From an uncultured Verrucomicrobiae bacterium (GTDB lineage: Bacteria; Verrucomicrobiota; Verrucomicrobiia; Limisphaerales; UBA11358): DNA of 64,000 nt. Position 1 is the first letter of the stretch, and each line of letters begins with the position of its first letter. The notes beneath the pieces are model-generated. The model saw only the letters and a list, made by a program, of their open reading frames with translations. It was not told where the DNA came from and did not search any database. The stretch covers positions 11,706-75,705 of the forward strand of contig CAWJHF010000017.1 in NCBI GenBank assembly GCA_963842445.1. The letters are read 5' to 3'. Both the position numbers and the translations under genes were made by a program. Positions 7,358 to 60,689 of the stretch are shown here, in pieces.

Positions 7358-7804
7358 TCACCACAAATACCGCTCGTTGTATTCCACACCGTTGGCTCTC
7401 AAAAATTCCAAATACTCCTCTTGAAATGCTTTCTTACGATGATGCTCCTCCTGATTGGCGATGTAATGTTTCACTTTTTCAACTAATGACGCGCTCACTG
7501 AAAATGCGCCGTAGCCGTCCTGCCACTCGAATTGTTTGTCACCGATGGATTCATGCACCCACGCCGAGGAAGCGCGTTTGACATCGCGCATCACGTCCGC
7601 CAAGCGGTGCGTCGCGCGGATTCCCACCAACAGATGAACATGGTCGGCCACGCCGCCGACGGCTTCGGGAACCACATCCAAACTCCGAATCGCGCCGCCG
7701 ATGTAAGCGTGAAAGCGAGGACGCCAATCCGCGGCGATGAGAGGGCGCTGGTGTTTGGTGCCGAAAATGACGTGGCAATGGAGGCTTAAATGGGTCGAAG
7801 ACAT
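7358..7804 (-). CDS. IS200/IS605-family Y1 (HUH) transposase-like protein, possibly RAYT-like; solitary
   Basis: HUH motif HVHLLV and a catalytic Tyr context WQDGYGAFSVS; 148 aa. There is no tnpB partner and no clear element ends. Confidence 0.8.
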   Translation of the reverse strand: MSSTHLSLHCHVIFGTKHQRPLIAADWRPRFHAYIGGAIRSLDVVPEAVGGVADHVHLLVGIRATHRLADVMRDVKRASSAWVHESIGDKQFEWQDGYGAFSVSASLVEKVKHYIANQEEHHRKKAFQEEYLEFLRANGVEYNERYLW

Positions 7805-7819: not shown

Positions 7820-9559
<1,740 letters not shown>

Positions 9560-21167: not shown

Positions 21168-23711
21168 TCAGGCCATCACCCGCGCGATGGAATTCCACCA
21201 CACGTCGTGCAATTCAGTCATCGGTGCACTGAGTTCGCCGGCAGCGGTCCTAATGGCCAGCTTGTCGCCGCCGACTTTGCCGATTTGAATTGCCGGAACA
21301 CCCATCAATCTCGCGCGTTCGACCACTTTCACCGCGTCAAGCGGTCTGCACGTGATGACTACGCGGCTTTGCGTTTCGCCAAATAGCAACGCGTCGAGAC
21401 GCAACGCAGGACAGGCATCTTGCCCGCCTCCATTTTTTAAATCAGTTTGAGACAGGCTGGAAGCCTGTCCTACGGCCGTCAAATCTACCGTCGCGCCAAT
21501 CAGCCGTGGTGTCTCGCGCGCGACGAGCTGGCTGATGCAGCTTTCGGCCAGACACACCGCCAGGCCGCCTTCACTGCAATCGTGGGCGCTTTTCACCAGA
21601 CCACTTTGGATGAGTCCGAGCAGCGTTGTGTGCAATGTCTTTGCGGTTTCCAAATCACAGCGTGGCGGCGTGCCGGTTTTTTTGCCGTGAACGACTTGCA
21701 GATAAGCCGAACCGCCGAGACCGAGCAACGGATCGTTTGCATCCACCGCGTCACCGAGCAAAATGATCGCGTCGCCATCGTCCTTGAACCATTGCGTCGT
21801 GACGTGTTCCGGTTTTTCGATCAGGCCGACCACCACCACCGTTGGTGTCGGGTCAATCGGGCCGTTCGGGCTTTGATTGTAAAGTGAGCAATTGCCGCCG
21901 GTGACGGGCGCATTGAACGCCCGGCACGCGTCGGCCAGGCCGCGCACGGATTCCTTGATCTGCCAGAACAAATCCGGCTTGAGCGGGCTGGGCATATTGA
22001 GGTTGTCCGTCGTGCCGAGTGGCACCGCGCCGGAACAAGCCAGATTGCGGCAGGCCTCGGCCATCACGATCTTCGCGCCTTCGTAAGGATCGAGATAGAC
22101 GTAGGTCCCGTTGCCGTCCACCGACAATGCAATCAACTTTGTGGGAAAGGCATCCTGCCTGTCTCCATTTTCATTTTTAATTTGAGACAGGCTGGAAGCC
22201 TGTCCTACGTCGGGCAACGAATCTTCCTTGATACGCAGCACCGCCGCGTCGCTGCCGGGGCAGACGACCGAGCCGTCGCGAACCATGTGATCGTATTGGC
22301 GGTAAACCCAGTTCTTCGATGCAATCGTCGGCCACGCCAGCAATTTCAGCAGATCGGAGATGGGAGATTGGGAATCGGGAATTCCATCCAACCGGAACGC
22401 GCGGACCTCCTTCAAATACTCCGGTTCACGCGATTCGGGATGATATACCGGCGATTCGTCGGCGATTTTCTTCGCCGGTATGTCGGCGACAATTTTCCCA
22501 CCATGCCGCACGACCATGCGGCCGGTATCGGTCACGCTGCCGATTTCCGACCACGGCAAGTCCCACTTGTCGAAAATGCGTTTCACTTCCTCTTCGCGGC
22601 CTTTGTGGACGATGATAAGCATCCGCTCCTGCGATTCCGAGAGCATAATTTCGTAGCTGCTCATGTTCGGTGCGCGTTGCGGGACTTTGTCCAACTCAAT
22701 CTCGATGCCGGTGCCGGCACGCGCGGCGGTTTCGCAAGTCGAGCAGGTCAATCCTGCCGCGCCCATGTCCTGAATCCCCGCGACGGCGCCGGTGGCCAAC
22801 AGCTCAAGGCACGCTTCACACACGAGCTTTTCCATGAACGGATCGCCGACCTGCACCGCGCCACGCTGTTGTTCGGCGGATTCCTCCGTCAAATCCTGCG
22901 ACGCAAACGCCGCGCCCGCGAGGCCGTCGCGGCCAGTGGCGGGGCCGACATAAAACACCGGGTTGCCCACGCCTTTGGCCGCGCCGCGCGCGATTTGTTC
23001 GTGCCGCAGCACGCCGAGGCAGAAGGCGTTTACGAGCGGATTGCCTTCGTAGCTCTTGTCGAAATAGACCTCACCCGCAATGGTCGGGATGCCGAAGCAA
23101 TTGCCGTAGTGCGCAATGCCGGCCACGACACCGGCGAACAACCGGCGGTTGTTCAGAACTTCGGATCGGGGAGCACACGCGCCCTCGCGTGTTGTGGTCG
23201 GCGCCTCGCCGATCACTTCGGCCGGCGCGGTCTTCTGCTCGGCGGGGGCGCAGAGCGGTGCACGCGAGGCGCGTGCGCTCCCCATTTCAATTCCGTTCTC
23301 GGTAATCGGCCCAAAACGCAGGGAATTCACCGAGCAAATCGGCCGCGCGCCCATCGTGAAAATGTCACGCACGATGCCGCCCACGCCCGTGGCCGCGCCT
23401 TGGAACGGCTCGACCGCGCTCGGATGATTGTGCGATTCCATCTTGAACGCAATGGCCAGACCGTCGCCGATGTCAATGATGCCGGCGTTCTCCTCGCCTG
23501 CCCCGACGAGGATTTTTTTGGATTTGGTGGGGAACGTTTTCAGCAACGGACGCGTGTTTTTGTAGCTGCAATGCTCGCTCCACATCACCGAGAAGATGCC
23601 CAGCTCGGTATAACTCGGCTGGCGGCCGAGGAGACGCTGGATGTTGGCATATTCCTCCGGCGTGAGGTTGTGTTTGGCAACCAACTCTGGGGTGATGGCG
23701 GGTTCGGTCAT
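21168..23711 (-). CDS. purL: phosphoribosylformylglycinamidine synthase subunit PurL, with three extra in-frame segments
   Basis: [35 protein letters not shown], and other PurL hallmarks. The ORF is 847 aa, compared with the ~740 aa I recall for Bacillus PurL. Confidence 0.9.
21409..21473. repeat. palindromic element family A, copy 1 (inside purL)
   Basis: Core tttgagacaggctggaagcctgtcctacg at 21446-21474 is identical to 22181-22209. The hairpin is gacaggc-tggaa-gcctgtc. Confidence 0.9.
22149..22209. repeat. palindromic element family A, copy 2 (inside purL)
   Basis: Same 29-nt core. In addition, cctgcctgtctc (22154-22165) is the inverted partner (11 of 12) of gagacaggctgg (22184-22195), across an AT-rich loop. 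Confidence 0.9.
23168..23283. repeat. palindromic element family B (inside purL)
   Basis: Arm ggggagcacacgcgccctcgcgtg (23168-23191) pairs with inverted arm cacgcgaggcgcgtgcgctcccc (23261-23283), with one mismatch and one indel. The spacer is about 69 nt. Confidence 0.85.
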
Positions 23712-24276: not shown

Positions 24277-24987
24277 TTATGCCGCTTTCGCCACAGTTTT
24301 CTTTTCCAGCGCGGTAAAGATGCTTTCAAAAATCCATTTGCCTTCGTCGCTGCCTAACACCGGTTCGCTGGCGCGTTCGGGATGCGGCATCAGGCCGGCC
24401 ACGTTGCGGCGTTCGCTGCAGATGCCAGCGATGTTCTGCACGGAACCGTTGGGATTCGCGGTGTCGGTCAGGTTCCCATTGGCATCGCAGTATTGCCACA
24501 GGATTTGGTTGCCCAGCTTGAGCCGGGCGAGCGTTTCTTCATCCGCGTAATAGCAGCCTTCGCCGTGGGCGATGGGAAGTTTCAGCCATTTGCCCGGCGG
24601 AATTTTGTTCGTGAACGGCGAATCCGGCGTGGCGGTTTTCAGGAAAATGTGTTCGCAGTGGAACTGCAAATCGCGGTTGCGGATGAGCGCGCCGGGCAGC
24701 AGGCCGGCCTCGGTAAGCACTTGAAAGCCGTTGCAGATGCCAAGCACCAGCCCGCCGTTGTCGGCGAATTGTTTCACGGCCTGCATCACCGGGCTGAACC
24801 GCGCGATGGCGCCGCAACGCAGATAATCGCCGTAGCTGAATCCGCCAGGCACGATGACGGCGTCGGCAACGCCGAGGGAATTTTCCTTGTGCCAGACGTA
24901 ACGCGCCGAATGGCCGAGCAGCCCGATGGCGTGGATGGCGTCCTGGTCGCAGTTGCTGGCGGGGAATTGTAAAACAGCGAAGTTCAT
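24277..24987 (-). CDS. purQ: phosphoribosylformylglycinamidine synthase subunit PurQ (glutaminase)
   Basis: VPGGFSYGDYLR and GICNGFQ (catalytic Cys), plus a MPHPER-type C-terminal motif. Confidence 0.9.
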   Translation of the reverse strand: MNFAVLQFPASNCDQDAIHAIGLLGHSARYVWHKENSLGVADAVIVPGGFSYGDYLRCGAIARFSPVMQAVKQFADNGGLVLGICNGFQVLTEAGLLPGALIRNRDLQFHCEHIFLKTATPDSPFTNKIPPGKWLKLPIAHGEGCYYADEETLARLKLGNQILWQYCDANGNLTDTANPNGSVQNIAGICSERRNVAGLMPHPERASEPVLGSDEGKWIFESIFTALEKKTVAKAA

Positions 24988-25074
24988 TTATGATTGATGA
25001 TTTATGATCTATGATTTACGCGCAAACCGGCGGGCGATCCGCCAATCATCAATCGTAAATCATAAATCATAAAT
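24988..25074. repeat. two oppositely oriented arrays of ATT[TG]A[TC]G heptamers flanking a GC-rich core
   Basis: Left arm is 24988-25020 and right arm is 25043-25074, around the core cgcaaaccggcgggcgatccgc. It lies between purQ and purS. Confidence 0.85.
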
Positions 25075-25079
25075 TTCGG

Positions 25080-39371: not shown

Positions 39372-39448
39372 TGGTACGCGAGGCGGGGGTCGAACCCACA
39401 ACCTTCGGCTCCGGAGGCCGACGCTCTATCCAATTGAGCTACTCGCGC
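39372..39448 (-). tRNA. tRNA-Arg (anticodon CCG), CCA encoded
   Basis: Reverse complement is GCGCGAG-TA-GCTC..GAGC-..-CGGCC-TCCGGAG.. Cloverleaf built by hand: anticodon loop CUCCGGA, T-loop GGTTCGA-like, and 3' ACCA. Confidence 0.9.
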
Positions 39449-40167: not shown

Positions 40168-41526
40168 TTACAACCCGCGCAACACTTTCGCGGCCGCGGT
40201 GACCGTTTTTTTAATATCCGTCAACATGTGCGCGGTGGAAATGAAACCGGCCTCGAATTGCGACGGTGCGAGATAAATACCTTCGTCCAGCATTCCGTGG
40301 AAATACTTTTTGAACCGGTCGCGGTCACTTTTCATCGCATCGGCCAAGCTCCAGACTGGTCCACTTGTGAAATACACGCAAAACATTGAGCTGCAACGGT
40401 TAAACGTAACGGCCACGCCGGCAGACTTTGCGGCGTCCTTCATGCCGGTTTCAAGTTGCGCGCCGAGTTTTTCGAGCTGGTCATAAACGTTCGCTTCGGA
40501 GGGCGGAGTTCCACGACGCCCTGACTTGGTTTCGAACTTCTTTTTAGCGGCTCGCGGAGTTCGTCCCTCCGACAACTCTTTGAGGGCCGCGATGCCCGCC
40601 GCCATTGCAACCGGATTGCCGCTCAACGTCCCGGCCTGATAAACCGGTCCCAGCGGCGCGAGCAAATCCATGATGTCGGCGCGTCCGCCGAACGCGCCCA
40701 CCGGCAAGCCGCCGCCGATGACTTTGCCGAACGTGGACAAATCCGGCGTGATGCCGAAACGTTCCTGCGCGCCGCCGCGTGCCACACGGAAACCCGTCAT
40801 CACTTCGTCGAAAATCAGCAACGCGCCGCTGGCCCTTGCGATTTCTCGGAGAAATTCCAGATAGCCCGGCTTTGGCAAATAAACTCCGGCGTTGCCCGGA
40901 ACAGGCTCAACGATGATTCCGGCGATTTGATTTTTGTTCGCGTTAAACGCGGCCTTCACCGCGTCAACATCGTTGAACGGCAAAACGATGGTGTGTTGCG
41001 TGAATGCCGCGGGCACACCGGCACTGTCAGGATTGCCAAACGTGAGCGCGCCGGAGCCGGCCTTCACGAGCAACGAATCCGCATGGCCGTGGTAGCAGCC
41101 GTCGAATTTGATGATTTTGTCGCGCTGGGTGAATCCGCGCGCAAGCCGAATCGCGCTCATGCACGCTTCCGTTCCCGAATTGCACATGCGGACTTTCTGC
41201 ACGCTCGGCACGAGCGAACAAATCATCTTCGCCATCGTGACTTCGTAAGGATTCGGGATGCCGAAGCTTGTGCCTTTTTCAGCGGCGGCCTTGACGGCGG
41301 AAATGATTTTCGGATGGGCGTGGCCGAGAATCGCCGGCCCCCAGGTGCAGACGTAATCAATGAATTCGTTGCCGTCCACGTCCCAGACGCGCGCGCCCTT
41401 GGCCCGGTTGACGAAAAATGGCCAGCCGCCGACGGCGCGGAAGGCGCGCACGGGCGAATTCACACCGCCGGGAATGTATTTCAGCGCCTCGGCGAACAAC
41501 GCTTCGGATTCGGCCCATGAATTCAT
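40168..41526 (-). CDS. hemL: glutamate-1-semialdehyde 2,1-aminomutase, with one extra in-frame segment
   Basis: [21 protein letters not shown], and FDEVMTGFR, with the PLP-Lys context [11 protein letters not shown] at 41526. Confidence 0.9.
40497..40571. repeat. palindromic element family C (inside hemL, 75 nt)
   Basis: cggagggcggagttccacgacgcc...gcggagttcgtccctccg. The ends ggaggg and ccctcc pair. The arm gagggcggagttccacgacgcc recurs at 50242-50263. Confidence 0.85.
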
Positions 41527-44659: not shown

Positions 44660-47600
44660 TCATTCGTTTAGTACACCGTTGTTCGTTTCTTTCGTTTCTT
44701 TCGTTTCTTTGGGATGGGTCACCGGCAATGTCACGATAAACGTGGCTCCCGAACCCGGCTTGCTCCTGGCGGTGATGTCACCGTGGTGAAACACCGCAAT
44801 TTTCCGGGCTATTGCCAGCCCCATGCCCGTGCCTTCGTATTCGTTCCGGCTGTGCAACCGCTGAAACACGTTGAAGATCCGGTCGAGATATTTTTCGTCG
44901 AACCCAATGCCGTTGTCGCTGACCGTCAGGCGGCAAAGTTTTTCCTCCGGCGCGTCAGGACCAGCCTGCGGCCGAGGCCCGGAGATAATTTGCGCCGCGA
45001 CTTTCACCACGGGCGGCGCCTCAGGGCGGCGGAATTTGAGGGCGTTGCCAATCAAGTTTTGCAACAACTGACGCATCTGAAGCGCTTCCGCCTCGATAAC
45101 CGGAAGGGTTCCCGCTTCCACGCGCCCTTTGACCAGTTCGATCCGCCCCTCTAAATCGCTCAAGACATCACGGGCCACCTCCGCCAAATCCACCGGCTCG
45201 AACGGTTTTGCCTTGGTCGTGACGCGTGAAAAAGTCAGCAGCTCGTTGATCAGGTTTTGCATGCGCGCGGCCGCCTTCTGCATCCGCTCCAAATAATCGC
45301 GCGATTCGGCCTCCAGGGTTTCACAGGTCTTCTCCTTGAGCCGTTCACCAAAGACCACGATTTTGCGCAACGGTTCCTGCAAATCATGCGAGGCCACGTA
45401 GGCAAAATCCTGCAACTCGCGATTGCTGCGTTCAAGCTGGGCCATGAACTGGCGCAGTTTCTCCTCGCTCTTGCGCAAGGCTTCTTGCGCCACTTTCATC
45501 TCGTGGATATCACGCGTAACTCCCACCGTCCCCAAAACGTTTCCATTGTTGTCGCGCCAGAGCACCTTGCTGGTGACAGACCAGCGTTTCTGATCTGATT
45601 TGTCACCGGGGCTGACCTTGTATTGTTCCTGATTAATGACCGCCTTGCCGGATTTTATGATATTCTGTTCATCATTGTAAAACTGCTCGGCCAGTTCCCG
45701 CGGGAAATAGTCAAAGTCACTCTTGCCCTTCATTTCCTCCGGCGACTTTTCGCCGAGGTTTCCTGCATGAGCCAGATTGTTCAACACAAACCGCCCCTCC
45801 TTGTCTTTGGCATAGATGAAGTCCGGCAAATTGTCAATCAATGTGCGCAACAGGAGGCGCTCCCGGGCCAGCGTCTCTTCCGTCTCTTTGATCGCCGTCA
45901 CGTCACTGGAGATGCCGAAGGTGCCGATGATGTTTCCGTCCTTGTCGCGCCAGGGCATCTTCGCCGAGAGCCACCAAATGGCCTTGCCATCGGGGAGGGC
46001 GGCTTTCTGGATTTTGCCCATGATGGGCTTACCCGTGTGCATAATCTCCTGCTCGTCTTCATACGCGGCACGCGCGTGCGCCTCCGGGTAAGTGTCGAAA
46101 TCGGTTTTACCGATCAGCCATTCGCCGAAAGCCTCAACGCCCGCCAAGTGGGCCGGCCATTCGTCCGGACCGGCGGTCGGGTGGAGCGCGCGATAGCTCT
46201 CACGGGCGGTTTCCAGCGTCGCCTCCACTTTCGATTTGCTCGCCCGCACAAGGCGTGACTTCTGATCTTTGAAATAGATGTTGTCCGGAATATTTTCCAG
46301 CAGTGCCCGGAACAGTTCCCGTTCGTACTCCAGCCTGGCTTCCACCTGCTTGTATTCAGTGATGTCCCGGCCAATTCCCACCAGCCCGATGATTTTCCCG
46401 TTCGGATCGCGCAGCGGCAGCTTGCTGGTCAACAGCCAGCGCTCCTGGCCTGTTTCGTCTATGAAGTATTCCTGCCGGTTTAGTACTGGCTGGCCCTGAA
46501 TCACCTTCTGATCGTCGGCCCAGAATTTTTCGGCAATGTCCGGCGGAAATAGATTGAAATCACTCTTCCCAATGGCCTCGGCCTCGGTTTTGCAGCGGAG
46601 GTTTTTCAGGTTGGCTGGATTAACCAGCGTCTTCCGGCCGGAGGTGTCCTTGGTGTAGATGGCATCCGGCAGGTTGTCAATGAGCGTGCGCAGGAGGAGG
46701 CGTTCCTGGGCCAGCGATTCCTCCGTGTGTTTCTGGTCCGTGATGTCCCGGTTGATGCCCGCGATGCCGACCACCTTGCCTGTCTCGTCCCGAAGCGGCA
46801 CCTTGGTCACCGACGCCCAAGTGACTTCGCCGCCGAGCCGGGTCTGCGTCTCGATCTTGTTAATCAAAGGCTGGCCCGTCTGGATGATCTTTTGCTCGTC
46901 CTGGAAAAACTCCTGGGCTTTTTCCGGCGGGAAGAAATCAAAGTCCGTCTTGCCGACAGCCTGTTCCGGATCCGCCACGCCAATGCGCTTGGCGAGCGTC
47001 CGGCTGAGCTTGAGAAACCGCGATTGGGTGTCTTTGAAATAAATCCGGTCGGGAACGTTGTCCAGCATCGCCTGCAACAGCCGCTGAGCGCCGGCCAGCG
47101 CTTCTTCCGCCCGCTTCCGCTCGGCGATTTGTTGTTGCATCGCTGCGTTCCTCTCGGAAAGTTCGGCGGTGCGTTCGGTGACCCGCTGTTCCAGTTCGTC
47201 ACGCGATTGGCGCAACGCCTCCTCGGCCAGTTTCAGTTTGGTAATATCCCGCGCAATGCCGATCAACCCCGTAACATTGCCCTCATCGTCCTTCAACGGA
47301 ATTTTTGTGGTTAGGGACCAGCGCATTTCCCCCGTTCCTTTGTGCTGGGTGGGTTCCTCTTTGTTCATCGGCTGGCCTGAGCGCATCAGCGATTGTTCGT
47401 CGGCAAGATACTGCTCGGCCAGCTCCGGCCCGACAAAATCCGCGTCGCTCTTTCCCAACACCTTGTCCGGATGGCCGGCCCCCAGTTGCTGGGCGCAGGC
47501 CATGTTGGTGACGACAAACCGGCTCTGCGCGTCTTTGATAAAGACAAGGTCCGGCAGGTTGTCAATGAGCGTGCGCAAGAGGCGGCGTTCCCGGTTCAGC

Positions 47601-48904
47601 GATTCCTCCGTCTGTTTAAGCTCCGTGATGTCCTGGCTGATGCCCACCAGACCGATGACTTTTCCCCCATCATCCCGTAGCGGCACTTTGGTGACGGACG
47701 CCCAGGTGATTTTGCCGTCGGGCATCGTCACCTTCTCGATTTTACCAAGCAAGGGCTGTCCGGCCTCGAAGATTTTTTGCTCGTCCCGACGGAACTCCTC
47801 GGCCTTTTCCCGGGGATAAAAATCAAAGTCCGTTTTGCCAATGACCTGTTCCCAAGTTTCCACGCCCAGGCGCCGGGCGACCGCCCGATTGCACTGAACA
47901 AACCGGGATTCGGTGTCCTTGAAATAAACCCGGTCGGGGATGTTGTCCAGCACCGCCCGCAACTGGCTATTAGTGCGGGCCTGCGATTCCTTCATCTGTA
48001 CTTGATCCGTGATGTCCCGGTTGATGCCCGCGATTCCGAACACCTTGCCCGCCTTGTCCCGCAGCGGCACCTTGGTGGTGGACGTCCAGGCGATTTCGCC
48101 ATTGGGCAGGATCTGCCGCTCGGTCTTGTTGATCAACGCCTCGCCCGTCCGGATAATCCGTTGCTCATCCTGGTAAAATTCCTCGGCCTTTTCCGTTAGA
48201 TTGAAATCAAAGTCCGTCTTGCCAATGGCTTCTTCGGGATCTTTCACGCCCAGGCGCTTGGCGAGCGCATCACTGAGCTTCAAAAACCGGGATTGGGTGT
48301 CCTTGAAATAAATCCGGTCGGGGACGTTGTCCAGGATGGCCTGCAACAACAGGTGGGCATCGGCCATTGATTCCTCCGTCCGTTTCAGCCCCGTGATGTC
48401 CCGGCCGATACCCACCAGCCCGACGATCTTTCCGTTCGGATCGCGCAGCGGCAGCTTGCTGGTCAACAGCCAGCGTTTCTCGCCTTCCTCGTTAAAGAAA
48501 TACTCCTCCCGGCCAGTAACCGGCTCGCCTTGAATCACCTTCTGATCGTCAGCGGAGAATTTGGTCGCAATATCCGCGGGATAGAAATCGAAATCGGTTT
48601 TGCCGATGGCCTCGGTCTCGGTTTTGCAGCGGAGGTTTTTCAGGTCCGCCGGATTGGCCATAGTCTTCCGGCCGGCGGTGTCTTTGGTATAAATCAGGTC
48701 CGGCAGATTATCAATGATGGTGCGCAACAGGTCCCGCTCCTGCGCCAGCCGTGCATTTTCCTGGGTAAGCCGTTTGTTCTCTTGCGCGAGCAGCTCGCCG
48801 GGTTCCGCGGATTTCGAATTTTCCAAACACTTCATCGGGCGTTCGTCCGGCGACGCGGGGACGACTTTAGTCAATGGCGGCTCATTGCAACTAATTGTTT
48901 TCAT
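44660..48904 (-). CDS. multi-PAS sensor histidine kinase (about 9 PAS/PAC modules + HisKA + HATPase_c)
   Basis: Repeated ...DNLPD.IY.KD...GKTDFDF...DITE.K modules; H-box ASHDLQEPLR; DNGIGF and GTGMGL. An ATG lies at 48904, and the track's GTG alternative is at 48925. Confidence 0.85.
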   Translation of the reverse strand: MKTISCNEPPLTKVVPASPDERPMKCLENSKSAEPGELLAQENKRLTQENARLAQERDLLRTIIDNLPDLIYTKDTAGRKTMANPADLKNLRCKTETEAIGKTDFDFYPADIATKFSADDQKVIQGEPVTGREEYFFNEEGEKRWLLTSKLPLRDPNGKIVGLVGIGRDITGLKRTEESMADAHLLLQAILDNVPDRIYFKDTQSRFLKLSDALAKRLGVKDPEEAIGKTDFDFNLTEKAEEFYQDEQRIIRTGEALINKTERQILPNGEIAWTSTTKVPLRDKAGKVFGIAGINRDITDQVQMKESQARTNSQLRAVLDNIPDRVYFKDTESRFVQCNRAVARRLGVETWEQVIGKTDFDFYPREKAEEFRRDEQKIFEAGQPLLGKIEKVTMPDGKITWASVTKVPLRDDGGKVIGLVGISQDITELKQTEESLNRERRLLRTLIDNLPDLVFIKDAQSRFVVTNMACAQQLGAGHPDKVLGKSDADFVGPELAEQYLADEQSLMRSGQPMNKEEPTQHKGTGEMRWSLTTKIPLKDDEGNVTGLIGIARDITKLKLAEEALRQSRDELEQRVTERTAELSERNAAMQQQIAERKRAEEALAGAQRLLQAMLDNVPDRIYFKDTQSRFLKLSRTLAKRIGVADPEQAVGKTDFDFFPPEKAQEFFQDEQKIIQTGQPLINKIETQTRLGGEVTWASVTKVPLRDETGKVVGIAGINRDITDQKHTEESLAQERLLLRTLIDNLPDAIYTKDTSGRKTLVNPANLKNLRCKTEAEAIGKSDFNLFPPDIAEKFWADDQKVIQGQPVLNRQEYFIDETGQERWLLTSKLPLRDPNGKIIGLVGIGRDITEYKQVEARLEYERELFRALLENIPDNIYFKDQKSRLVRASKSKVEATLETARESYRALHPTAGPDEWPAHLAGVEAFGEWLIGKTDFDTYPEAHARAAYEDEQEIMHTGKPIMGKIQKAALPDGKAIWWLSAKMPWRDKDGNIIGTFGISSDVTAIKETEETLARERLLLRTLIDNLPDFIYAKDKEGRFVLNNLAHAGNLGEKSPEEMKGKSDFDYFPRELAEQFYNDEQNIIKSGKAVINQEQYKVSPGDKSDQKRWSVTSKVLWRDNNGNVLGTVGVTRDIHEMKVAQEALRKSEEKLRQFMAQLERSNRELQDFAYVASHDLQEPLRKIVVFGERLKEKTCETLEAESRDYLERMQKAAARMQNLINELLTFSRVTTKAKPFEPVDLAEVARDVLSDLEGRIELVKGRVEAGTLPVIEAEALQMRQLLQNLIGNALKFRRPEAPPVVKVAAQIISGPRPQAGPDAPEEKLCRLTVSDNGIGFDEKYLDRIFNVFQRLHSRNEYEGTGMGLAIARKIAVFHHGDITARSKPGSGATFIVTLPVTHPKETKETKETNNGVLNE

Positions 48905-49218: not shown

Positions 49219-49295
49219 GCGCCCGTAGCTCAGATGGATAGAGCATCTGCCTTCTAAGCAGAGGGTCCCGCGTTCGACTCGCGGCGGGCGCGCCA
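49219..49295 (+). tRNA. tRNA-Arg (anticodon TCT), CCA encoded
   Basis: GCGCCCG-TA-GCTCAGATGGATAGAGC-A-TCTGC-CTTCTAA-GCAGA-GGGTC-CCGCG-TTCGACT-CGCGG-CGGGCGC-G-CCA, folded by hand. Confidence 0.9.
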
Positions 49296-49302
49296 CTTTC
49301 CA

Positions 49303-49338
49303 TTTACGATTGCCGATTTACGATTTACGATTCATTCG
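49303..49338. repeat. ATTNNCG heptamer array directly upstream of the DHPS-like gene
   Basis: atttacg attgccg atttacg atttacg attcatt. The stretch gattgccgatttacgatt is identical to the reverse complement of 517-534. Confidence 0.85.
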
Positions 49339-49340
49339 CG

Positions 49341-50228
49341 ATGCTGACACTGGAACAACTGGCTGAACTCCTCGGAAAAAACCGCGACGCCGCGTCCGCG
49401 CGCGTGAAGGAATTTTCCATCGGAGGCAGACATTTTGCCTTCAATTCACGGGCAGCCTTCATGGGCGTTGTCAATCTCTCGCCGGATTCCTGGTATCGCG
49501 AAAGCGTCTGCCTGACAGCAGAAGCCGCCATTCAACGCGGCAGGATTTTGATCGCGCAAGGTGCGGACATCGTGGACGTCGGCGCGGAATCCACGCTCGC
49601 CCACGCCGCGCGTGCGGATGACGGGGCGCAAAACTCCAAGTTGCTCCCGGTCATCAAGGAACTGCGCACCGCGGACATTCTGGTTTCGGTTGAAACCTAT
49701 TCACCCGCCGTCACGCGCGCCTGCCTCGAAGCCGGCGCAAACATCTTGAATCTCACCGGCACCGACGGCAGTGATGAATTGTATCGTCTGGTTGCGGCGC
49801 ATGACGCAGCGGCGATCATCTGTTATGTGCAGGGCAAAAACGTCCGTGAAGTCGGCGATTTTGATTTCGGCGCCGACCCGATTGAAATGATGGGTTCGTA
49901 TTTTGCGCGGCAGATCGAAATCGCGCAGCGTAACGGCCTCGAAAAAATTCTGCTCGATCCCGGCCTCGGCTTTTACTACCGCAACTTGCAGGACAGCGCG
50001 GTGCGCGTCCGGCATCAGATGAACATTTTCCTGAACACGTTCCGGTTGCGGACGCTCGGTTTTCCGATTTGCCACGCCCTGCCCCACGCCTTTGAATTTT
50101 TCCGCGACGAAGTCCGCTGCGCCGAGCCGTTCTTTGCCATGCTGGCCGCGTTGGGCAAAACCGACTTGTTCCGGACCCACGAAATCCCGCGTATCAAAGC
50201 CGTGCTGGACACGATGAAAGTATTTTAG
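49341..50228 (+). CDS. dihydropteroate synthase-like pterin-binding protein
   Basis: MGVVNLSPDSW (compare GILNVTPDSF), DIVDVGAEST, and LDPGLGF motifs. Confidence 0.65.
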   Translation: MLTLEQLAELLGKNRDAASARVKEFSIGGRHFAFNSRAAFMGVVNLSPDSWYRESVCLTAEAAIQRGRILIAQGADIVDVGAESTLAHAARADDGAQNSKLLPVIKELRTADILVSVETYSPAVTRACLEAGANILNLTGTDGSDELYRLVAAHDAAAIICYVQGKNVREVGDFDFGADPIEMMGSYFARQIEIAQRNGLEKILLDPGLGFYYRNLQDSAVRVRHQMNIFLNTFRLRTLGFPICHALPHAFEFFRDEVRCAEPFFAMLAALGKTDLFRTHEIPRIKAVLDTMKVF

Positions 50229-50240
50229 CCGCCCAAAATC

Positions 50241-50300
50241 AGAGGGCGGAGTTCCACGACGCCTTGATAAAATCAGGGACTCACAGAGCTCGCCCCTCCG
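50241..50300. repeat. palindromic element family C copy spanning the 3' end of the methyltransferase gene
   Basis: agagggcggagttccacgacgcc...gagctcgcccctccg. The last 7 codons and the stop codon of the minus-strand gene lie inside it. Confidence 0.8.
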
Positions 50301-51303
50301 AATTGCGGCAAAGGAACACCCCTTCCTCTTCGGATTTAGTCATCCATTGCCCGCAGACCTCCAAACCATACCGACCAAGAACCACTTGAACTCGCTCCGG
50401 CGTATAACGATACGAGAAGAAAAGCCGGATGGCTTCGCCGGCACGAAAATCAAATGCCTCGTTTTCAATTTCGATCCGGCACGGGCGTGTAAAATGAAAC
50501 TTGGCCACAATGCGTTTCAAGCCGCTGGCTGAATCAGTTTCGATTTTGAAGCGCAGCTTGCCGTCACTGCGCTCGACACCAAGATCGAGCAGAAACATCA
50601 TCAGCCAGTCACGCGTGAGCGGATTGTCGTATTGCGGCAAAACCCTTTTCACTCCGGCGGCATAATTTTTGCCCGGCGCCAGATTCGCGCTCAACAGCAG
50701 AAAATCCTTCGGACGAACCAACGATACGAGCTTCGGCAAAACCTGCTTCGGCTCAAAGTTCGGAATCATGCCGAAAAAAGTGACGAGTGACGGCGTAAAG
50801 CCGCGTGGCGGCCACGCCGCTATACGCGGGTGACGCGTGACGAGAGCTTTGCGCAAATCATCCGCCGTTGCCAGATCGCAAACGAATGGGAAACAATTTT
50901 TCTCCAGCACGACTGCCAGTGCAGTCTGGCGGGCGGTCAAAACCATCGCGGTGCTGACGTCGCACGGCATGTAGAGCACTTCCTTGCCGTGGGCTTTCAG
51001 CAGCTTCAGCAGACGCATATCCTTTTGCCCGCCGCCGCAGCCTAAGCCGATGACCTGAACGCTCTTCGCTGCGATCCGCGCAGCAGCAGCCTTGAAACCT
51101 TTTTCATATACCGCCTGACAATCCGTGTCATTCCACGCCGGCGAATACGTTTGGTGCAGCGCCAGCCATTTTTGGGTTTGCCTGATACTGTCGTAATGAA
51201 ACTTGTGGTTCACGCGCCGCGTGCGCAGCGACTCCAGCAAATCGCGGCGGACCGTGTCGGGAAACTGGCTGCGGTGAATCGTGACGTTGGTGATGGTGCT
51301 CAT
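50281..51303 (-). CDS. SAM-dependent methyltransferase resembling the EgtD/Methyltransf_33 family
   Basis: GLGCGGGQKD (SAM-binding loop), FFGMIPNFEP, and a C-terminal substrate-domain-like pattern. Weak recognition by eye. Confidence 0.55.
   Translation of the reverse strand: MSTITNVTIHRSQFPDTVRRDLLESLRTRRVNHKFHYDSIRQTQKWLALHQTYSPAWNDTDCQAVYEKGFKAAAARIAAKSVQVIGLGCGGGQKDMRLLKLLKAHGKEVLYMPCDVSTAMVLTARQTALAVVLEKNCFPFVCDLATADDLRKALVTRHPRIAAWPPRGFTPSLVTFFGMIPNFEPKQVLPKLVSLVRPKDFLLLSANLAPGKNYAAGVKRVLPQYDNPLTRDWLMMFLLDLGVERSDGKLRFKIETDSASGLKRIVAKFHFTRPCRIEIENEAFDFRAGEAIRLFFSYRYTPERVQVVLGRYGLEVCGQWMTKSEEEGVFLCRNSEGRAL
50774..50844 (+). repeat. GTGACGN heptamer element (family G) with an internal hairpin, inside the methyltransferase gene
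   Basis: 50774-50791 is identical to 7961-7978, and 50828-50844 matches 7979-7995 at 15 of 17 positions. The extra 36 nt in between contain gcgtggc-g-gccacgc. Confidence 0.9.
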
Positions 51304-59727: not shown

Positions 59728-59774
59728 GGGCGGAGTTCAAACCGCTGAAACGCAGCGAGTGGTTTGCAAATCCC
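59728..59774. repeat. family C-related hairpin at the 3' end of the small membrane ORF
   Basis: gggcggagttcaaacc ... ggtttgcaaatccc are imperfect inverted arms. Confidence 0.6.
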
Positions 59775-60507: not shown

Positions 60508-60689
60508 TGCGGACGATTAAATCACGAATCCGCCCTCCGAAGCAATACTGCGAGGGTGGACGGGCGCGAAAGAACACGCACGAATTGTCCCGGCCAACTC
60601 CTTTGGAGTCTGCGACAGTCTTGTCACCTTTTTTCACCGCCCTGTTAGCGCTGCCACTGATAGGGCGATTTCAACACCCTTGAATTACT

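Follow-up and report, generated by a model that had tools for sequence, protein, structure and literature searches.

A REP-doublet-like dispersed repeat, probably a translated passenger, in the HemL hinge loop of an uncultured Verrucomicrobiae bacterium

The gene for glutamate-1-semialdehyde 2,1-aminomutase (hemL) of an uncultured Verrucomicrobiae bacterium carries, in frame, one copy of a short dispersed repeat, here termed family C. The gene lies in a window of 64,000 nucleotides (GenBank assembly GCA_963842445.1, contig CAWJHF010000017.1), the whole stretch of DNA that was analysed and to which the coordinates below refer. We consider it probable that the repeat is a selfish or dispersed element of the REP-doublet type, and that HemL carries it in a permissive hinge loop, where it is translated as a passenger. 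An earlier note on this DNA had described a 75-nt palindromic element inserted in hemL. Its core observation is confirmed and its reading of that observation is supported; as a whole it is partly confirmed. The evidence supports the view that the hemL segment is a copy of a dispersed palindromic repeat, inserted relative to other phyla and to many Verrucomicrobiota, though it is neither private nor recent. The gene and the parts of the element are as follows.

40168 to 41526, minus strand: hemL (glutamate-1-semialdehyde 2,1-aminomutase), 452 aa, from ORF, Pfam and PDB matches
40496 to 40572, minus strand: family C element, copy 1, 77 nt, in frame in hemL, HemL residues 319-343
40498 to 40521, minus strand: intact arm (the 3' arm in mRNA sense), GGGCGTCGTGGAACTCCGCCCTCC, with stem GGGCG/CGCCC and 11-nt loop
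40522 to 40546, minus strand: spacer, 25 nt, A-rich, encoding ...AKKKFETKS
40547 to 40570, minus strand: degenerate arm (the 5' arm in mRNA sense), GGAGGGACGAACTCCGCGAGCCGC, its own stem broken in this genome

The hemL product matches the Pfam Aminotran_3 profile at 1.3e-75 and the PDB chains of GSAM at E values of 1e-150 or better. Translation of the minus-strand ORF confirms an in-frame insert of 25 codons. On the coding strand copy 1 reads TCG GAG GGA ... CCC TCC GA, and the 25 extra residues are strongly basic, being rich in Lys, Arg, Pro, Gly and Ser. Its ends form a perfect 8-bp inverted repeat, TCGGAGGG / CCCTCCGA. The sequence that the earlier note had placed at 40497-40571 is indeed found there, and by these termini the full element is larger, 77 nt. 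In a phmmer comparison with PDB the HemL alignment splits at query residues 319/346, corresponding to 323/326 of 2GSA; the hinge loop spans 26 residues in the query versus 2 in the solved HemL/GSAM structures, in keeping with the earlier description of the segment as an insertion relative to other HemLs. For Arabidopsis GSA1, Gly328 is the last residue of the PLP-binding domain and Thr329 the first of the C-terminal domain (PMC4909244). Since the query aligns to 5HDM as far as residue 327, the insert sits at the hinge between these two domains, and by alignment its site equals the Gly328/Thr329 boundary of AtGSA1. The question of whether the insert lies in a loop of the C-terminal domain is therefore answered in part: it is in a loop, but at the hinge with the PLP-binding domain and not within the C-terminal domain. 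An AlphaFold2 model of the window HemL, built from 37 close homologues, was unusable (mean pLDDT 38.8), and because that alignment was too shallow the insert was placed by sequence alignment to PDB chains. From the solved structures so aligned and the published domain limits, the insert is predicted to be exposed on the surface.

The insert is confined to close relatives. Among 80 metagenomic hemL loci, a four-residue loop is found in every locus at 54-65% identity and also in ten loci at 74-78% identity, which make up most of that band. The 120 closest HemLs (80-90% identity) all have something in the loop, and about 78 of them have family C with a homologous spacer, four of these with a further 60 nt nested in the element. 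Judged from its presence in most HemLs at 80-90% identity and its lack in most at 74-78% and in all at 54-65%, the hemL copy is old. The earlier note had named two observations that would speak against it, the segment in HemLs of other phyla and reads that do not support the insertion; neither holds, as HemLs of other phyla are without the segment and public contigs back it.

The canonical form of family C is TCGGAGGG-NN-GAGYTMYRCGA-N'N'-CCC, a spacer, then GGG-NN-TCGTGKAACTC-N'N'-CCCTCCGA. Each arm is composed of a conserved TCGGA tail, a G+C-rich stem of 5-6 bp (GGGNN...N'N'CCC) and a conserved 11-nt loop. The set comprises 91 doublets, whose spacers range from 7 to 75 nt with a median of 20 nt, and 43 arms without a recognisable partner; singlet arms also occur. 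Direct tandem arrays of arms, as opposed to inverted doublets, are seen in L090 (3864-4445, period about 172 nt), L171 (2293-2470, period 51 nt), L114, L168 and L169. In copy 1 the intact arm retains 15 of 15 fixed positions, its two free stem pairs are complementary, and as single-stranded DNA it forms a stem of 6 bp; it is identical to an arm in the hemL of L081 and L084. The degenerate arm retains 13 of 15 fixed positions and one of two free pairs and forms no arm hairpin; the orthologous arm in L081 is intact (GGGGC...GCCCC). The spacer varies at 14 of 23 sites among five orthologues.

A second copy lies in the following setting.

50239 to 50301, minus strand: family C element, copy 2, 63 nt, spacer 11 nt, between convergent genes
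50241 to 50264 and 50276 to 50299: the two arms of copy 2, from the arm scan
50281 to 51303, minus strand: Methyltransf_33 (EgtD-like) gene, from ORF and Pfam
49341 to 50228, plus strand: pterin-binding (DHPS-like) gene, ending 11 nt before copy 2, from ORF and Pfam

The 22-nt arm GAGGGCGGAGTTCCACGACGCC, which the earlier note had seen to recur at 50242-50263, does so exactly, with 0 matches in 100 shuffles. A relaxed arm scan of the window returns exactly four arms (40498-40521, 40547-40570, 50241-50264 and 50276-50299) and 0 in the reversed-sequence control. Two further hairpins, at 59728-59774 and 60529-60563, had been counted as related; they were rejected as members of family C, as they have only 11-nt words in common with the element (BLAST E 0.79), fail the arm scan and have folds no stronger than those of shuffled sequences (z -1.28 and -0.23). 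An Rfam scan of the window at gathering score gave two tRNAs only and no match for the element. Copy 2 also contributes to a protein: the Methyltransf_33 ORF ends ...CRNSEGRAL*, of which the last residues, SEGRAL, and the stop codon come from the repeat; the match to the Pfam profile extends to position 303 of its 304, which falls at residue 333 of the 340 in the protein.

Beyond the window, the degenerate arm pattern GGVSTCGTGKAACTCSBCCCTC was run on GTDB species genomes, where it occurs in at least 116 stretches; among the matches listed, nearly all are in Verrucomicrobiota, the hosts being Limisphaerales, Pedosphaera, subdivision 3 and a few Kiritimatiellae, and single MAGs have five or more family C loci. 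A search of 2.9 million viral contigs with the same pattern gave only 4 matches, so nothing points to phages as a vehicle. Across distant HemL loci, 651 kb in total, the arm scan gave 2 matches against 1 in the control. Copy density is modest, with 2 copies in the 64-kb window and, in close relatives, about one copy outside hemL for every 150 kb. Full doublets also stand on contigs of MAGs labelled Terriglobia, Aquilonibacter, Bifidobacteriaceae and Sulfopaludibacter (L091, L093, L127, L137 and L165), either because verrucomicrobial contigs were mis-binned or because the family has spread horizontally.

Residence inside genes is common for this family. In the GTDB loci, 32 of 80 full elements (about 40%) are embedded in an open frame that continues without a stop for 60 codons or more on each side; 13 of these intragenic copies have the same orientation as the frame and 19 the opposite one, and all three frames are used. 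Every one of ten in-frame copies tested proved to be in a conserved gene, with Pfam domains spanning or flanking the insert. The host genes are these.

isoleucyl-tRNA synthetase
NAD-dependent DNA ligase
peptidase U32 (orthologous insert, two MAGs)
amine oxidase
SDR
GlnE
class I/II aminotransferase
3-dehydroquinate synthase
BamB-like propeller

The arms are open in nearly every frame, which leaves the host gene intact. The sole stop-bearing frame is the one read GTG TAA, and coding copies avoid this stop through TGGAAC or GAGCTC variants. Conserved in-frame copies are not peculiar to hemL, as the orthologous U32 peptidase genes of L130 and L119, which come from different MAGs, hold family C at the equivalent position, and two paralogous genes on one contig (L170, 762-829 and 4196-4263) hold copies at the same position.

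The HemL loop itself has received more than one kind of repeat. In close relatives the same four-codon gap is occupied by at least eight other repeat types, among them the following.

L003/L210, L207 and L212: GTAG-tagged REP doublets in the hemL loop
L211, L005 and L208: heptamer arrays in the hemL loop
L209: GEGE-type palindrome in the hemL loop
L206 (about 1500-1560; P0069), likewise P0056, P0059 and P0077: 60-nt nested element in hemL

Several further inserts, or none, occupy this loop in other close relatives, and some of the non-C repeat families recur at non-hemL sites. In L003/L210 and L212 the terminal CTAC of the REP provides a conserved Tyr codon, and in L210 GTAG is altered to GGAG. 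The nested element, an unrelated 60 nt (DH.SRSERPNLGNKSVAGLG), sits in frame exactly in the 11-nt loop of an arm (TCGTG^...^AACTC). In some insert-free HemLs, such as that of L006 (GAC ACC TAC), the last bases of the native loop are CCTAC, which is GTAGG, the REP tag, in reverse complement; this may be target mimicry or a coincidence. Either the loop is the one permissive place in the protein or resident hairpins draw further insertions to it; the nested case and the shared junctions would favour some targeting.

The crowding of this loop bears on whether the hemL copies of family C go back to one old insertion or are repeated recent insertions or replacements at a preferred target. The latter is a real possibility, though we rate it as distinctly the less probable. 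It draws on a mismatch between insert and gene, in that the window gene is nearest to L083 and L001 (11% divergence) and its insert is nearest to that of L081, from which the gene diverges by 17%. It also draws on the trees, in which arm variants switch at least six times against a minimum of one and insert types change 42 times against a minimum of 12 (neighbour-joining), and on the insert-free HemL of L008, which clusters with a carrier. GTAG REP doublets in the same codon gap and the 60-nt element nested in the arm loop of L206 likewise speak for it. Against it, the spacers of the hemL copies are homologous (...PKKKSEIKSG...) and unrelated to those at other loci, which argues for common descent of the family C copies in hemL, and insert type is far more clustered on the tree than permuted labels, which require 86 steps. 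The trees, made by UPGMA and neighbour-joining, are rough and shallow, with about 420 residues, and this too weakens the case for repeated insertion. The figure of 42 steps, set between the minimum of 12 and the 86 of permuted labels, is best read as mostly vertical descent with repeated replacement.

The arms of the hemL copy change far more slowly than synonymous sites. Between the window and L081 there are 2 differences in 51 arm bases and 0 in the 27 of the intact arm, versus 34% at third positions, and the alternative arm state differs by paired, compensatory changes. This suggests either that the arms are constrained at the DNA level or that other copies overwrite them; they could also be conserved if lineages exchange segments of hemL by recombination. 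No target-site duplication or exact DNA-level empty site can be defined at hemL, where the insert-free relatives are too diverged, and none of the flanks of 91 family C copies has a direct duplication.

What is conserved in the element is the arm hairpin. Both free stem pairs are Watson-Crick in 129 of the 142 arms found with the pattern, and these 129 use just four combinations (AC/GT, GC/GC, CG/CG and CC/GG) where the pattern permitted 36. In 70 distinct partner arms, which the pattern did not constrain, 90.6% of stem cells are paired and 30 are changed on both sides; none of 500 shuffles reaches this value, and controls slid along the sequence stay at or below 57%. The two arms of one element, on the other hand, are fully complementary at the free positions in only 27 of 91 cases and mismatched at all four in 18. 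As the two arms often have different stems, it is the small arm hairpins that are conserved and not a long palindrome. The earlier note's 75-nt palindrome therefore stands as a repeat and not as a strong fold: the long fold of copy 1 is weak (RNA z -1.84, DNA z +0.30) because the arm at 40547-40570 is degenerate. The element as one long hairpin was set aside in favour of two arm hairpins, given this weak fold and the covariation within arms.

The same data make it quite improbable that the element is kept as a long RNA hairpin in hemL mRNA, acting in pausing, stability or translational control. Such a role would suit the mRNA-sense strand, which folds at -34.2 kcal/mol with G-U pairs, better than the opposite strand; it would also suit copy 2, at the 3' ends of two convergent genes, and the view that REPs near 3' ends are RNA elements (PMC3733652). 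However, 10 of 200 shuffles fold as well as the element, covariation backs the stems within arms, pairing between arms is broken in most elements, including that of L081, and the intragenic copies show no orientation bias (13 same, 19 opposite).

A protein-level role fares slightly worse still. The insert might have been adopted as a functional HemL loop, for instance as a flexible, basic arm for contact with glutamyl-tRNA reductase or some other binding partner; its retention in most HemLs at 80-90% identity, its strongly basic character and the mere 5 differences in 75 nt between the window and L081 would all accord with this. Those 5 differences nevertheless fall 2/2/1 over the codon positions, and insert differences among orthologues are distributed about 1:1:1, as compared with about 0.10-0.12 / 0.05 / 0.34 in the rest of the gene. 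Such codon-blind substitution indicates that the peptide is not under selection at the protein level. Moreover, close relatives have unrelated loop sequences (SSSRRE..., AEFGMRNS..., GEGE..., GANPKS...) or none at all, and the same DNA is found between genes and, in other frames, in other proteins. An artefact of assembly or binning has a negligible chance, for although short-read contigs break inside the arm, two contigs from an independent run are exact over both junctions, the identical protein is encoded on 2 contigs, and the insert stands in frame in over 70 related proteins from JGI, ENA and NCBI assemblies.

Public data agree with this. The two exact contigs are from a public soil-metagenome run, and the identical 452-aa protein is on 2 contigs of a public collection. 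Where public short-read contigs end inside the arm, read depth is 10-25 fold higher, as expected of a repeat. One relative, in another run, has an insert-free allele with 31 nt in place of a 103-nt stretch. One metatranscriptome run yielded contigs of relatives only, none of them across the insert. The insert is probably translated and tolerated by the loop.

The favoured reading, a REP-doublet passenger, can be put as a sequence of events. The element would be a short non-coding REP or REP-doublet (REPIN-like) repeat of a kind common in Verrucomicrobiota, with the arm as its unit and two inverted arms around a variable spacer of 7-75 nt. One copy may have entered the codons of the four-residue HemL hinge loop in an ancestor of a Limisphaerales-type lineage. 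With its arms open, hemL would have stayed intact and the element would have been read through as 25 extra residues. The peptide would then be a tolerated passenger, and the DNA of the arms (or their RNA) the thing conserved. Spread would have been through a Y1/HUH-type transposase that recognises hairpins in single-stranded DNA, as in REP-RAYT and IS200/IS605 systems. What suggests such a transposase is anatomy, namely a stem with a conserved tail, units that occur as doublets, singlets or arrays, and targets that are not duplicated.

A partner enzyme was sought in 1.8 Mb by phmmer over stop-to-stop frames, with an IS200 TnpA sequence as seed, and hits were checked against Pfam and NCBIfam. 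Three divergent Y1_Tnp genes were found, at 7358-7804 of the window and in L191 and L113, with scores for NCBIfam REP_Tyr_transpos below the cut-off. None of the three is flanked by family C arms, other hairpins being present instead, and the 1.8 Mb holds no insertion sequence with family C termini. The gene at 7358-7804 (minus strand) encodes an IS200-like Y1 transposase of 148 aa (Pfam Y1_Tnp 3.5e-21; NCBIfam transpos_IS200 55.3 bits against a cut-off of 55) and begins 15 nt past the stop of a rimO/miaB-like gene. On its 3' side are small G+C hairpins, CCGGGGATAACATCCCCGG and GCCCCGGCAGGGGC, which are not family C arms, and the L191 and L113 genes are flanked by yet other hairpin repeats. 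The 7358-7804 gene may be domesticated, RAYT-like and tied to another repeat family.

A stronger version of the mechanism is conceivable, though we think it unlikely. The HemL hinge loop would be a true exchange site, at which a single-strand transposase guided by hairpins cuts REP-type doublets at the junction of tail and stem and replaces them with other REP families, or overwrites them from copies elsewhere in the genome. Family C would then represent a REPIN lineage of Verrucomicrobiota with a GGAG tail and a putative, possibly domesticated Y1 transposase. Were this so, an orthologous codon gap would record repeated replacement of elements with the enzyme left intact.

Other repeats are present in the window. 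At 7820-9559 (minus strand), a radical-SAM methylthiotransferase gene (UPF0004, Radical_SAM and TRAM domains) encodes about 125 extra residues between its first two domains, including HRTSNIEHRTS from tandem heptamers, (CATCGAA)n, with repeats at 9107-9151. The CATCGAA heptamer family is also found at 513-550, 13979, 16066, 24986-25076 and 49288-49332. The repeat in the methylthiotransferase is probably among the other in-frame cases to which the earlier note alluded. Another repeat is represented by two 74-nt copies, 81% alike, at 21409-21482 and 22144-22217, with hairpins GGACAGGC...GCCTGTCC. Two tRNA genes with equal Rfam scores, at 39375-39448 (minus strand) and 49219-49292 (plus strand), form an inverted pair 9.8 kb apart with 87-nt arms that are 70% complementary; hemL with copy 1 lies between them, and copy 2 lies about 1 kb past the second. 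Four to six internal direct repeats at 45680-48750, with periods of about 384-500 nt and 60-81% alike, are presumably a repeated protein domain in a large minus-strand gene.

Several known systems resemble family C in part. Rickettsia palindromic elements (RPEs), the classic in-frame case, lie in many housekeeping genes and add extra surface peptides of no evident function; RPE-1, the best-known type, is about 100-150 bp long and A+T-rich. RPEs are not known outside Rickettsia, an alphaproteobacterial genus, and they were reportedly described by Ogata and co-workers in 2000, a study cited in PMC3733652. Family C is like them in its in-frame insertion in conserved genes with the ORF preserved (hemL and ten others), but host phylum, length and base composition differ, the two being compared by description, and kinship in sequence would not be expected. 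MITEs, such as Correia elements and the Coxiella MITEs that alter proteins (PMC5896051), are likewise small with terminal inverted repeats, and some of them extend or interrupt ORFs. They are, however, defined by a parent insertion sequence and target-site duplication, neither of which is seen for family C. The Y1 (HUH) transposases of IS200/IS605 act on imperfect single-stranded DNA hairpins beside a short cleavage motif and leave no target duplication, which fits the arm anatomy and the lack of duplications in family C by way of analogy.

The closest match is with REPs and REPINs (PMC3733652; Bertels & Rainey 2011, PMC3116915). Like family C, these are short imperfect palindromes with a conserved tail beside the stem; they form inverted doublets with variable spacers as well as singlets and tandem arrays, and they are dispersed, mostly chromosomal repeats that adjoin 3' ends and can provide stop codons. 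REPs inside genes were described by Di Nocera et al. (2013), over half of these inserts being dimers or grouped repeats that encode 20-30 aa. In that study the verrucomicrobium Opitutus terrae had the largest number of in-frame dimers, and recB of two Xanthomonas species carried different REPs at about the same site (PMC3733652). The differences are equally clear. REP tails are GTAG or CGTC, and the tail of family C is TCGGAGGG, with GGAG where REPs have GTAG. Nor is family C predominantly extragenic, with about 40% of sampled copies (32 of 80) in long open frames; no RAYT flanked by family C arms was found, and the two arms of one element usually have different stem sequences. Given the tail, the location and the lack of a demonstrated RAYT, family C is best called REP-doublet-like rather than a proven REPIN-RAYT system. 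As in-frame REP dimers in Verrucomicrobia were already described in 2013, the novelty is modest; what is added is covariation at the level of the arm, evolution that ignores codon position though the arms are conserved, and a HemL loop that has been used again and again.

Taken together, it seems that in soil and peat Verrucomicrobiota a REP-like family has been written into many core enzymes with none of them broken, and that a single hinge loop of HemL has put up with nine or more different peptides derived from repeats. Annotators thereby have an explanation for odd stretches of low complexity in otherwise conserved proteins of the phylum, SEGR...GTPPS and SRREEAH...LLTSSPT among them. To protein engineers the loop shows a point of the GSAM fold at which insertions are tolerated. 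Since substitutions in the insert are codon-blind, constraint on the arms at the DNA level can be separated from constraint at the protein level, and the HemL site, an orthologous and selectable position, offers a natural test bed in which a tree can be used to date when REP doublets were gained, lost or replaced.
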